Origin: Escherichia coli
GTDB taxonomy: Bacteria; Pseudomonadota; Gammaproteobacteria; Enterobacterales; Enterobacteriaceae
NCBI RefSeq assembly: GCF_048403405.1
Contig: NZ_CP183135.1
Reading direction: 5' to 3' (one strand)
DNA: 64,000 nt
This document shows positions 30,093 through 33,917 of this stretch, in pieces. A model generated the notes under the pieces. It had not been told where the DNA came from, made no database searches, and worked only from the letters and a program-made list of their open reading frames with translations. A program made the position numbers and the translations under genes. Numbering within the stretch: the stretch's first letter is position 1; each line of letters begins with the position of its first letter.

Positions 30093-30912
30093 GGCACTGT
30101 TGCAAATAGTCGGTGGTGATAAACTTATCATCCCCTTTTGCTGATGGAGCTGCACATGAACCCATTCAAAGGCCGGCATTTTCAGCGTGACATCATTCTG
30201 TGGGCCGTACGCTGGTACTGCAAATACGGCATCAGTTACCGTGAGCTGCAGGAGATGCTGGCTGAACGCGGAGTGAATGTCGATCACTCCACGATTTACC
30301 GCTGGGTTCAGCGTTATGCGCCTGAAATGGAAAAACGGCTGCGCTGGTACTGGCGTAACCCTTCCGATCTTTGCCCGTGGCACATGGATGAAACCTACGT
30401 GAAGGTCAATGGCCGCTGGGCGTATCTGTACCGGGCCGTCGACAGCCGGGGCCGCACTGTCGATTTTTATCTCTCCTCCCGTCGTAACAGCAAAGCTGCA
30501 TACCGGTTTCTGGGTAAAATCCTCAACAACGTGAAGAAGTGGCAGATCCCGCGATTCATCAACACGGATAAAGCGCCCGCCTATGGTCGCGCGCTTGCTC
30601 TGCTCAAACGCGAAGGCCGGTGCCCGTCTGACGTTGAACACCGACAGATTAAGTACCGGAACAACGTGATTGAATGCGATCATGGCAAACTGAAACGGAT
30701 AATCGGCGCCACGCTGGGATTTAAATCCATGAAGACGGCTTACGCCACCATCAAAGGTATTGAGGTGATGCGTGCACTACGCAAAGGCCAGGCCTCAGCA
30801 TTTTATTATGGTGATCCCCTGGGCGAAATGCGCCTGGTAAGCAGAGTTTTTGAAATGTAAGGCCTTTGAATAAGACAAAAGGCTGCCTCATCGCTAACTT
30901 TGCAACAGTGCC
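30093..30912 (+). mobile_element. IS26: IS26 copy 3 (820 bp)
   Basis: Boundaries from tnpA ORF 30138-30860 using the same offsets as copy 1; terminal GGCACTGTTGCAAA. Confidence 0.95.
30156..30860 (+). CDS. tnpA: IS26 transposase Tnp26
   Basis: Identical protein to copy 1. Confidence 0.95.
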   Translation: MNPFKGRHFQRDIILWAVRWYCKYGISYRELQEMLAERGVNVDHSTIYRWVQRYAPEMEKRLRWYWRNPSDLCPWHMDETYVKVNGRWAYLYRAVDSRGRTVDFYLSSRRNSKAAYRFLGKILNNVKKWQIPRFINTDKAPAYGRALALLKREGRCPSDVEHRQIKYRNNVIECDHGKLKRIIGATLGFKSMKTAYATIKGIEVMRALRKGQASAFYYGDPLGEMRLVSRVFEM

Positions 30913-30958
30913 TTTAAGCGTGCATAATAAGCCCTACACAAATTGGGAGTTAGACATC

Positions 30959-31558
30959 ATGAGCAACGCAAAAACAAAGTTAGGCATCACAAAGTACAGC
31001 ATCGTGACCAACAGCAACGATTCCGTCACACTGCGCCTCATGACTGAGCATGACCTTGCGATGCTCTATGAGTGGCTAAATCGATCTCATATCGTCGAGT
31101 GGTGGGGCGGAGAAGAAGCACGCCCGACACTTGCTGACGTACAGGAACAGTACTTGCCAAGCGTTTTAGCGCAAGAGTCCGTCACTCCATACATTGCAAT
31201 GCTGAATGGAGAGCCGATTGGGTATGCCCAGTCGTACGTTGCTCTTGGAAGCGGGGACGGACGGTGGGAAGAAGAAACCGATCCAGGAGTACGCGGAATA
31301 GACCAGTTACTGGCGAATGCATCACAACTGGGCAAAGGCTTGGGAACCAAGCTGGTTCGAGCTCTGGTTGAGTTGCTGTTCAATGATCCCGAGGTCACCA
31401 AGATCCAAACGGACCCGTCGCCGAGCAACTTGCGAGCGATCCGATGCTACGAGAAAGCGGGGTTTGAGAGGCAAGGTACCGTAACCACCCCATATGGTCC
31501 AGCCGTGTACATGGTTCAAACACGCCAGGCATTCGAGCGAACACGCAGTGATGCCTAA
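30959..31558 (+). CDS. aac(6')-Ib-cr: aminoglycoside/fluoroquinolone acetyltransferase AAC(6')-Ib-cr
   Basis: [51 protein letters not shown]...; carries GDGRWEEE (W102R) and TTPYGPAV (D179Y), the two -cr substitutions. Confidence 0.95.
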
Positions 31559-31652
31559 CCCTTCCATCGAGGGGGACGTCCAAGGGCTGGCGCCCTTGGC
31601 CGCCCCTCATGTCAAACGTTGGGCGAACCCGGAGCCTCATTAATTGTTAGCC
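31553..31652 (+). other. attC: attC (59-be) of the aacA4 cassette; cassette junction G/TTAGCC at 31646/31647
   Basis: GCCTAAC core overlapping the stop codon, imperfect palindrome, GTTAGCC inverse core. Confidence 0.6.
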
Positions 31653-31688
31653 GTTAAAATTAAGCCCTTTACCAAACCAATACTTATT

Positions 31689-32519
31689 ATGAAAAACACA
31701 ATACATATCAACTTCGCTATTTTTTTAATAATTGCAAATATTATCTACAGCAGCGCCAGTGCATCAACAGATATCTCTACTGTTGCATCTCCATTATTTG
31801 AAGGAACTGAAGGTTGTTTTTTACTTTACGATGCATCCACAAACGCTGAAATTGCTCAATTCAATAAAGCAAAGTGTGCAACGCAAATGGCACCAGATTC
31901 AACTTTCAAGATCGCATTATCACTTATGGCATTTGATGCGGAAATAATAGATCAGAAAACCATATTCAAATGGGATAAAACCCCCAAAGGAATGGAGATC
32001 TGGAACAGCAATCATACACCAAAGACGTGGATGCAATTTTCTGTTGTTTGGGTTTCGCAAGAAATAACCCAAAAAATTGGATTAAATAAAATCAAGAATT
32101 ATCTCAAAGATTTTGATTATGGAAATCAAGACTTCTCTGGAGATAAAGAAAGAAACAACGGATTAACAGAAGCATGGCTCGAAAGTAGCTTAAAAATTTC
32201 ACCAGAAGAACAAATTCAATTCCTGCGTAAAATTATTAATCACAATCTCCCAGTTAAAAACTCAGCCATAGAAAACACCATAGAGAACATGTATCTACAA
32301 GATCTGGATAATAGTACAAAACTGTATGGGAAAACTGGTGCAGGATTCACAGCAAATAGAACCTTACAAAACGGATGGTTTGAAGGGTTTATTATAAGCA
32401 AATCAGGACATAAATATGTTTTTGTGTCCGCACTTACAGGAAACTTGGGGTCGAATTTAACATCAAGCATAAAAGCCAAGAAAAATGCGATCACCATTCT
32501 AAACACACTAAATTTATAA
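31689..32519 (+). CDS. blaOXA-1: class D beta-lactamase OXA-1 (276 aa)
   Basis: MKNTIHINFAIFLIIANIIYSSASASTDISTVASPLFEGTEGCFLLYDASTNAEIAQFNKAKCATQMAPDSTFKIALSLMAF... Confidence 0.97.
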   Translation: MKNTIHINFAIFLIIANIIYSSASASTDISTVASPLFEGTEGCFLLYDASTNAEIAQFNKAKCATQMAPDSTFKIALSLMAFDAEIIDQKTIFKWDKTPKGMEIWNSNHTPKTWMQFSVVWVSQEITQKIGLNKIKNYLKDFDYGNQDFSGDKERNNGLTEAWLESSLKISPEEQIQFLRKIINHNLPVKNSAIENTIENMYLQDLDNSTKLYGKTGAGFTANRTLQNGWFEGFIISKSGHKYVFVSALTGNLGSNLTSSIKAKKNAITILNTLNL

Positions 32520-32628
32520 AAAATCTAATGGCAAAATCGCCCAACCCTTCAATCAAGTCGGGACGGCCAAAAGCAAGCTTTTGGCTCCCCTCGCTGGCGC
32601 TCGGCGCCCCTTATTTCAAACGTTAGAC
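32520..32628 (+). other. attC: attC of the blaOXA-1 cassette (inverse core GTTAGAC at 32622-32628)
   Basis: Imperfect palindrome between blaOXA-1 stop and catB3 start; 5' limit approximate. Confidence 0.5.
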
Positions 32629-32656
32629 GGCAAAGTCACAGACCGCGGGATCTCTT

Positions 32657-33097
32657 ATGACCAACTACTTTGATAGCCCCTTCAAAGGCAAGCTGCTTTC
32701 TGAGCAAGTGAAGAACCCCAATATCAAAGTTGGGCGGTACAGCTATTACTCTGGCTACTATCATGGGCACTCATTCGATGACTGCGCACGGTATCTGTTT
32801 CCGGACCGTGATGACGTTGATAAGTTGATCATCGGTAGTTTCTGCTCTATCGGGAGTGGGGCTTCCTTTATCATGGCTGGCAATCAGGGGCATCGGTACG
32901 ACTGGGCATCATCTTTCCCGTTCTTTTATATGCAGGAAGAACCTGCATTCTCAAGCGCACTCGATGCCTTCCAAAAAGCAGGTAATACTGTCATTGGCAA
33001 TGACGTTTGGATCGGCTCTGAGGCAATGGTCATGCCCGGAATCAAGATCGGGCACGGTGCGGTGATAGGCAGCCGCTCGTTGGTGACAAAAGATGTG
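32657..33097 (+). pseudogene. catB3: catB3 truncated at codon 147 by IS26
   Basis: [71 protein letters not shown]... runs directly into the IS26 terminal repeat at 33098. Confidence 0.9.
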
Positions 33098-33917
33098 GGC
33101 ACTGTTGCAAAGTTAGCGATGAGGCAGCCTTTTGTCTTATTCAAAGGCCTTACATTTCAAAAACTCTGCTTACCAGGCGCATTTCGCCCAGGGGATCACC
33201 ATAATAAAATGCTGAGGCCTGGCCTTTGCGTAGTGCACGCATCACCTCAATACCTTTGATGGTGGCGTAAGCCGTCTTCATGGATTTAAATCCCAGCGTG
33301 GCGCCGATTATCCGTTTCAGTTTGCCATGATCGCATTCAATCACGTTGTTCCGGTACTTAATCTGTCGGTGTTCAACGTCAGACGGGCACCGGCCTTCGC
33401 GTTTGAGCAGAGCAAGCGCGCGACCATAGGCGGGCGCTTTATCCGTGTTGATGAATCGCGGGATCTGCCACTTCTTCACGTTGTTGAGGATTTTACCCAG
33501 AAACCGGTATGCAGCTTTGCTGTTACGACGGGAGGAGAGATAAAAATCGACAGTGCGGCCCCGGCTGTCGACGGCCCGGTACAGATACGCCCAGCGGCCA
33601 TTGACCTTCACGTAGGTTTCATCCATGTGCCACGGGCAAAGATCGGAAGGGTTACGCCAGTACCAGCGCAGCCGTTTTTCCATTTCAGGCGCATAACGCT
33701 GAACCCAGCGGTAAATCGTGGAGTGATCGACATTCACTCCGCGTTCAGCCAGCATCTCCTGCAGCTCACGGTAACTGATGCCGTATTTGCAGTACCAGCG
33801 TACGGCCCACAGAATGATGTCACGCTGAAAATGCCGGCCTTTGAATGGGTTCATGTGCAGCTCCATCAGCAAAAGGGGATGATAAGTTTATCACCACCGA
33901 CTATTTGCAACAGTGCC
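33098..33917 (-). mobile_element. IS26: IS26 copy 2 (820 bp); Tnp26 CDS 33150-33854
   Basis: Terminal repeats GGCACTGTTGCAAA at both ends; boundaries fixed from the tnpA ORF. Confidence 0.97.

Follow-up and report, generated by a model that had tools for sequence, protein, structure and literature searches.

The closest described relative of the locus studied here is the IS26-flanked module of aac(6')-Ib-cr, blaOXA-1 and truncated catB3 characterised by Dulyayangkul et al. (PLoS Pathog 2024; PMC11156391). In that module IS26 is invariably found at one position upstream of aac(6')-Ib-cr, where it gives the promoter TTGCAA-17 nt-CATAAT, and a second IS26 cuts catB3. The cassettes themselves are those of In37-type class 1 integrons, which carry the array aacA4cr/blaOXA-1/catB3/arr-3 and express it from the integron promoter Pc. 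Elsewhere, the module is a component of larger IS26 translocatable units such as MB1860TU_A, which have the same insertion sequence and the same cargo (10.1101/616961). Here we compare these systems with positions 30093-33917 of a 64,000-nt stretch of Escherichia coli DNA (contig NZ_CP183135.1), to which we refer as the window. In this segment a first-pass annotation, made from the sequence alone, had noted aac(6')-Ib-cr, blaOXA-1 and a truncated catB3 between two IS26 copies.

The segment is a copy of this globally spread and well-known unit. It shares with the published module the point at which IS26 ends upstream of aac(6')-Ib-cr, the TTGCAA-17-CATAAT motif, the three genes and the break in catB3; its sole peculiarity is a single G missing at the catB3/IS26 junction. 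We consider it highly likely that the segment derives from an In37-type class 1 integron array, of which it is the canonical remnant bounded by IS26, that it sits within the resistance region of an E. coli plasmid of the IncF type, and that it is expressed from a hybrid promoter and spreads passively; this assessment applies to its origin, expression and mobility taken jointly. The factual statements of the first-pass annotation were all confirmed and its four interpretive points upheld; what it did not recognise is that the structure had already been fully described.

Anatomy and origin of the cassette remnant

The segment is bounded on the left by IS26 copy B (30093-30912, + strand) and on the right by IS26 copy C (33098-33917, - strand). 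Both copies are 820 bp long, have at their ends the 14-bp inverted repeats of IS26 (GGCACTGTTGCAAA) and contain a single IS6-family transposase gene, and copy C is the exact reverse complement of copy B with no mismatches. In copy B the transposase matches NF033587 (275.6 bits), and its gene, tnp26, listed as an open reading frame at 30156-30860 (+ strand), reads towards aac(6')-Ib-cr; tnp26 of copy C lies at 33150-33854. Both copies turn the right inverted repeat (IRR) end towards the cassettes, copy B abutting the start of the array and copy C abutting catB3. Between them lie 2,185 bp of cassette DNA with three genes on the + strand. Since many public records match this core, and both IS26 copies, with 100% identity, the pattern is not a product of chance. 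The start codons of the two tnp26 genes are 3,699 nt apart, which probably corresponds to the size quoted for the published module, whose end points are undefined (PMC11156391).

To locate the loss of the 5' end, we aligned the window with pEc-JB2-2 (L002), in which the array still resides on its integron. There, the attI1 end (...AAACAAAG) is followed by the cassette start (TTAGATGC...). In the window the array breaks at 30912/30913, as the first-pass annotation had placed it, and resumes 64 bp into the first cassette directly after the IS26 end. Gone relative to pEc-JB2-2 are intI1, Pc (TGGACA...TAAACT in that plasmid), attI1 and the 64 bp of cassette leader. Where a class 1 integron has intI1, attI1 and Pc beside its cassettes, the window has IS26, whereas the attC-delimited cassettes with their GTTRRRY core sites are retained. 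Compared with the In37-type integron, the cassette sequences, their order and their core-site boundaries are the same, but at the 3' side the module also lacks arr-3, the 3'-conserved segment and, from catB3, the final 191-192 nt. Positions 1-1196 of the window lie inside a separate class 1 integron and hold the end of dfrA17 (- strand) as well as an entire intI1 (about 183-1196). No other intI1 occurs in the window, and this integron is unrelated to the cassette remnant.

The aacA4cr cassette, minus its first 64 bp, occupies 30913-31618 (+ strand) and ends at the G of the core site GTTGGGC (31618-31624). It is followed by the complete blaOXA-1 cassette at 31619-32622 (+ strand), which ends at the G of the core site GTTAGAC (32622-32628). 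The inverse cores are located at 31553 and 32539. The aac(6')-Ib-cr coding sequence (30959-31558, + strand, 199 residues) is 100% identical in DNA to records annotated as AAC(6')-Ib-cr5 and scores 428 bits with the family profile NF033074 (cut-off 400). When the protein was aligned to wild-type AAC(6')-Ib (PDB 1V0C), 197 of the 199 residues were identical and the only differences were W102R and D179Y, encoded by CGG and TAT in the translation from the ATG at 30959; the annotation had read the -cr allele correctly. It had also named a wild-type W102/D179 or an intact catB3 as results that would overturn its interpretation, and the alignments gave R102/Y179 and CatB3 residues 1-147 only.

AAC(6')-Ib-cr acetylates ciprofloxacin and norfloxacin at a low level and modifies tobramycin and amikacin. 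Identity to the annotated AAC(6')-Ib-cr5 suggests that the copy in the window would acetylate ciprofloxacin and norfloxacin as well. Databases differ in the start codon of this gene: RefSeq, through the Prokaryotic Genome Annotation Pipeline, begins AAC(6')-Ib-cr5 at an internal GTG at 31004 (184 residues), while CARD uses the ATG at 30959 (199 residues). We favour the longer form because a GGGAG ribosome-binding site (30945-30949) precedes this ATG by 9 nt. The conventional residue numbers 102 and 179 are valid only in the 199-residue form. The blaOXA-1 coding sequence (31689-32519, + strand, 276 residues) is intact and identical in DNA to records annotated as OXA-1; it covers positions 1-276 of 276 of the OXA-1 family profile NF000388 with 648.7 bits (cut-off 580). 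OXA-1 confers penicillin/inhibitor resistance.

The third gene, catB3 (32657-33097, + strand), retains 147 of its 210 codons. The remaining piece consists of 441 nt, i.e. 147 whole codons, equal to the first 441 nt of the intact 633-bp catB3 in pEC545_KPC (L003); it then runs into IS26, where the reading frame continues up to 33259. Only residues 1-147 of a complete 210-residue CatB3 are encoded. They match positions 1-147 of the 210 positions of the CatB profile with 322.9 bits, below the curated cut-off of 350, and the truncated product is presumably inactive. The statement that the other IS26 cuts catB3 at codon 147 is exact for the window, while the canonical unit keeps 442 nt.

This difference of one nucleotide is all that separates the junction from the published break position. 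The intact gene in pEC545_KPC reads ...GATGTGGAGCCTTAC, the canonical unit has the junction GTGG|GGCACTG, and the window reads ...GATGTG|GGCACTG with one G fewer. Thus, the G run at 33095-33099 is GGG in place of the GGGG of the published module, which is made up of catB3 nt 442 together with the GG of IS26. Among the E. coli records at the catB3/IS26 junction, 338 contain four G's and 11 contain three (11/349), the latter being mostly plasmids of about 169 kb. The three three-G records that were inspected, p675SK2_B, pKP389-2 and one chromosomal copy, all have the flanks found in the window. Sequencing error was rejected as the sole explanation for the missing G, because 11 independent assemblies share the three-G form, although a homopolymer artefact in the window's own assembly is formally possible. 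Overall, the three-G junction looks like a neutral lineage marker of one plasmid family and not like random error. It is neutral because the IS26 end is intact and only the frame of a meaningless catB3-IS26 fusion is altered.

How the array came to be bounded in this way can be ordered to some extent. A first IS26 would have entered 64 bp into the first cassette, with removal of the integrase gene, attI1 and Pc, and a second IS26, in the opposite orientation, would have ended the array inside catB3. Records of the pEC545_KPC type combine the left junction seen here with an intact catB3 and an IS26 in arr-3, which suggests that the left junction was formed first and the right-hand truncations later.

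Inverted IS26 copies and movement of the module

Copies B and C are in inverted orientation, and the first-pass annotation was right that the segment is not a simple translocatable unit. Both an IS26 translocatable unit and a pseudo-compound transposon are bounded by direct copies; the bounding copies here are reverse complements, which also sets the 3.8-kb module apart from units of the MB1860TU_A type. With its two IS26 copies inverted, the 3.8-kb segment is unable to loop out as such a unit. In a bioRxiv preprint, Shropshire et al. (10.1101/616961) reported this module as having IS26 "in opposite orientation" and showed its amplification via an 8,147-bp translocatable unit between direct IS26 repeats. 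The inverted arrangement fits this amplification through larger direct-repeat units, and it fits the lack of target duplications described below.

The 8-bp flanks are CTGTCGAG and TTTAAGCG for copy B and AAGATGTG and CCATCAGG for copy C. In the window, no target-site duplication was found among the flanks of the two copies or of the whole unit, in direct or in reverse-complement pairing. Likewise, no duplication was found around the whole unit in five other contexts, namely one chromosome and three plasmids of E. coli and one Serratia IncC plasmid. The duplication that would surround a classical composite transposon is therefore absent from the window and from these five contexts alike. A missing 8-bp duplication is usual for IS26 copies that have been involved in deletions or recombination. 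Furthermore, left and right flanks assort independently: two distinct right flanks are combined with GTCGAAGT, and two distinct left flanks with TCTCGATA. Such mixed pairings are expected if each IS26 recombines independently.

We also searched plasmid records (PLSDB) with synthetic queries in which IS26 was flipped. The two junctions were queried separately, since a combined 180-nt query returned joined pieces that could not be interpreted. A flipped IS26 at the catB3 junction was found in 0 plasmid records. The flipped left junction gave 21 apparent records, of which at least the six listed are two-piece matches; a flipped left IS26 occurs in rare secondary derivatives. In the one record inspected (L008; Klebsiella pneumoniae OW849013.1, with three sister plasmids from Barcelona), a second IS26 is inserted inside the first, leaving a 13-bp remnant (TTGCAACAGTGCC) and preserving the promoter. 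At positions 1500-1720 of L008 the flipped IS26 abuts the remnant and is oriented as the canonical IS26-C, and in this plasmid and its sisters aac(6')-Ib-cr carries a premature TAG stop (GAG to TAG).

How the module moves is something that we infer from these arrangements, and they favour passive carriage over transposition of the unit. The module would be spread within larger segments between directly oriented IS26 copies, and it could also spread when IS26 forms a cointegrate or a deletion at one copy independently of the other, or by homologous recombination within IS26.

A narrower alternative is that the loss of the single G, together with the particular neighbours of this copy, defines a sublineage of mostly ~169-kb IncF plasmids in which the module could move only as part of a 31-kb unit between IS26 copies A and C. 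Copy A (1896-2715, - strand) is complete and is flanked by a perfect 8-bp duplication (GCATTGGG), which identifies it as a simple insertion. It has the same orientation as copy C, from which it lies 31 kb away, and no other copy in the window could bound a direct-repeat unit (31.2 kb) together with copy C. We regard this combined proposal as unlikely. If true, the iron-uptake cluster, tet(B) and catA1 would move together with aac(6')-Ib-cr and blaOXA-1 in one IS26 step, linking virulence-associated and resistance genes.

According to a second alternative the segment is a true composite, or compound, transposon, in which Tnp26 acts on both outer IS26 ends and the whole 3.8 kb moves, which would explain both wide distribution and amplification. 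Against passive carriage, the published description uses the term "composite transposon" and implies movement and amplification as such, without mention of the orientation of the IS26 pair, and the identical module is present in 714 database entries (PMC11156391). Moreover, the module is carried by plasmids of many types and by chromosomes, and both of its outer ends are intact IS26 termini. However, none of the six independent contexts has an 8-bp duplication round the unit, its left and right neighbours assort independently, and the amplification that has been documented relied on a larger unit between direct repeats (10.1101/616961). We therefore find transposition of the 3.8-kb segment very improbable. 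A further point against it is the behaviour of IS26 itself: according to Harmer and Hall, cointegrates are reportedly all that IS26 forms, and the mobile form is said to be a unit with directly repeated ends.

The IS26/cassette hybrid promoter

The promoter extends over 30900-30928 (+ strand) and was identified by a consensus scan over 2.6 kb. Its -35 element, TTGCAA (30900-30905), lies in the IS26 terminal repeat, and its -10 element, CATAAT (30923-30928), lies in cassette DNA after a 17-nt spacer. The IS26 end thus occupies the fixed position described for the published module. Promoter prediction across this junction was one of the checks that the first-pass annotation proposed, and TTGCAA-17-CATAAT spans it. 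Its claim that aac(6')-Ib-cr is transcribed from a promoter at or within the IS26 end was correct in substance, with one hexamer supplied by each side. In the intact cassette, the hexamers located 16-18 nt 5' of CATAAT match TTGACA at 0-2 of 6 positions. As the intact cassette has no usable -35 at that spacing, IS26 supplies the missing element. Other IS26 hybrid promoters, such as those of blaSHV-2a and aphA7, likewise combine the outward-facing TTGCAA with a resident -10 and activate a promoterless gene (cf. reference 18 of PMC11156391). They share with the module the same -35 in the IS26 terminal repeat, whereas the -10 partner used here is specific to the leader of the aacA4cr cassette.

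The 5' rapid amplification of cDNA ends (RACE) that had been suggested as a further check is already published for the identical sequence and confirmed the promoter: TTGCAA-17-CATAAT is active, and the start site lies downstream of it (PMC11156391). In the same study, a C-to-T change that converts CATAAT to TATAAT raised AAC(6')-Ib-cr about 4-fold, with OXA-1 co-varying in the proteomics data, and otherwise gene dosage set resistance to amikacin and piperacillin/tazobactam. The -10 in the window is the wild-type CATAAT, and the TATAAT up-mutation is absent. Taken over from these experiments on the identical sequence in other isolates, TTGCAA and CATAAT, separated by a 17-nt spacer, would make up a hybrid sigma-70 promoter, from which aac(6')-Ib-cr and blaOXA-1 are probably transcribed as one operon. 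Expression would be independent of the integron and, with the wild-type -10, of moderate strength in this copy. On the opposite strand, no -10 was found at a suitable spacing for an antisense promoter reading from the inner end of IS26-C into catB3.

Two observations weigh against this interpretation. First, the consensus scan found 5 sites where 3.9 would be expected in 2.6 kb, and the motif alone is not significant. Because the bare match is statistically unremarkable, the standing of the hybrid promoter rests on the published experiments. Second, copy B's tnp26 is oriented like the cassettes, and the scan found no terminator-like site between tnp26 and aac(6')-Ib-cr (30860-30959), so that some read-through is possible as a minor contribution. 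The stronger version, in which read-through from tnp26 or from promoters further upstream is the main source of expression and TTGCAA/CATAAT is incidental, can draw on these same points but is hardly credible, since the published RACE start site is that of the hybrid promoter, a single C-to-T in the -10 raises both AAC(6')-Ib-cr and OXA-1 protein (PMC11156391), and the Barcelona variant keeps TTGCAA-17-CATAAT intact although only 13 bp of the original IS26 are left there, the rest having given way to an IS26 with its tnp26 facing away.

Prevalence, plasmid context and significance

We searched 5,426 complete E. coli genomes for the two junctions. The left junction was present in 456 of them, and the catB3/IS26 junction in 346 according to a 60-nt search. 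A wider search for the right junction gave 371 genomes, a number inflated by joined pieces from variants with intact catB3, and the stricter search was used for this reason. The whole arrangement with both IS26 copies was found in at least 1,009 plasmid records, mostly from Klebsiella and Escherichia. The module had earlier been reported in IncF plasmids of E. coli sequence type ST131, for example in pEK499.

The window belongs to a multireplicon IncF plasmid of E. coli. It begins with the dfrA17 integron and its intI1, followed by IS26-A, a TnAs3-like transposon, catA1, tet(B) and the iron-uptake cluster. Next come an IS110-family element, a truncated Tn3-family tnpA, the module and an IS66-family element that is both truncated and split by IS100, and finally the haem receptor, RepFIB, sitABCD and the aerobactin genes. 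A 149-bp IS26 remnant (nt 672-820, + orientation) at 15045-15193 sits on the border of the iron-uptake cluster, next to an IS1 copy (14116-14883). This and two further IS1 copies (7760-8527 and 48762-49529) are 96-99% identical to one another; they bracket the tet(B)/catA1 region and adjoin sitABCD.

Directly to the left of the module is the Tn3-family transposase gene (27684-30092, - strand), whose 5' end was cut off by IS26 copy B; it matches positions 174-954 of the 954 positions of NF033527, and RefSeq annotates it as a partial Tn3 family transposase. To the right, IS26 copy C cuts the IS66-family element at the start of tnpB (33918-34253, + strand; NF033819, IS66 TnpB, in agreement with the annotation of L001 and L015). 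In this element, at 33918-37810, tnpC is frameshifted and is split by the IS21-family element IS100, whose istA spans 35333-36355 and whose istB spans about 36352-37134. These neighbours differ from those common elsewhere, which are Tn2/blaCTX-M-15 or aac(3)-IIe.

The 169-kb plasmid pKP389-2 from Taiwan is 100% identical to the window over 11741-53127, save for a 1,326-bp IS110-family insertion at 26346-27671. This element, annotated as IS4321 in a relative, sits just past the 3' end of the truncated Tn3-family tnpA and is the sole difference over 41 kb. The NDM-5 plasmid p_dm655_NDM5 (L001) corresponds to the window plus one IS26 and a 5,385-bp ISEcp1-blaCTX-M-15 segment, directly to the left of IS26-B and in direct orientation. 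The additional DNA, at 10094-16298 of L001, falls at window position 30092/30093, and this gain or loss would equal a translocatable unit in size. The window itself does not contain blaCTX-M-15, the usual companion of the module.

The structure, promoter and behaviour of the module are already published, and nothing in the present copy opens a new question. As described, the module links reduced susceptibility to fluoroquinolones with resistance to amikacin, tobramycin and piperacillin-tazobactam, and its dosage predicts treatment failure (PMC11156391). For this copy we can add that its promoter is of wild-type strength and that it cannot amplify on its own, because its two IS26 copies are inverted. 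In addition, the one-base variant of the catB3/IS26 junction might be used in epidemiology to mark one plasmid family.

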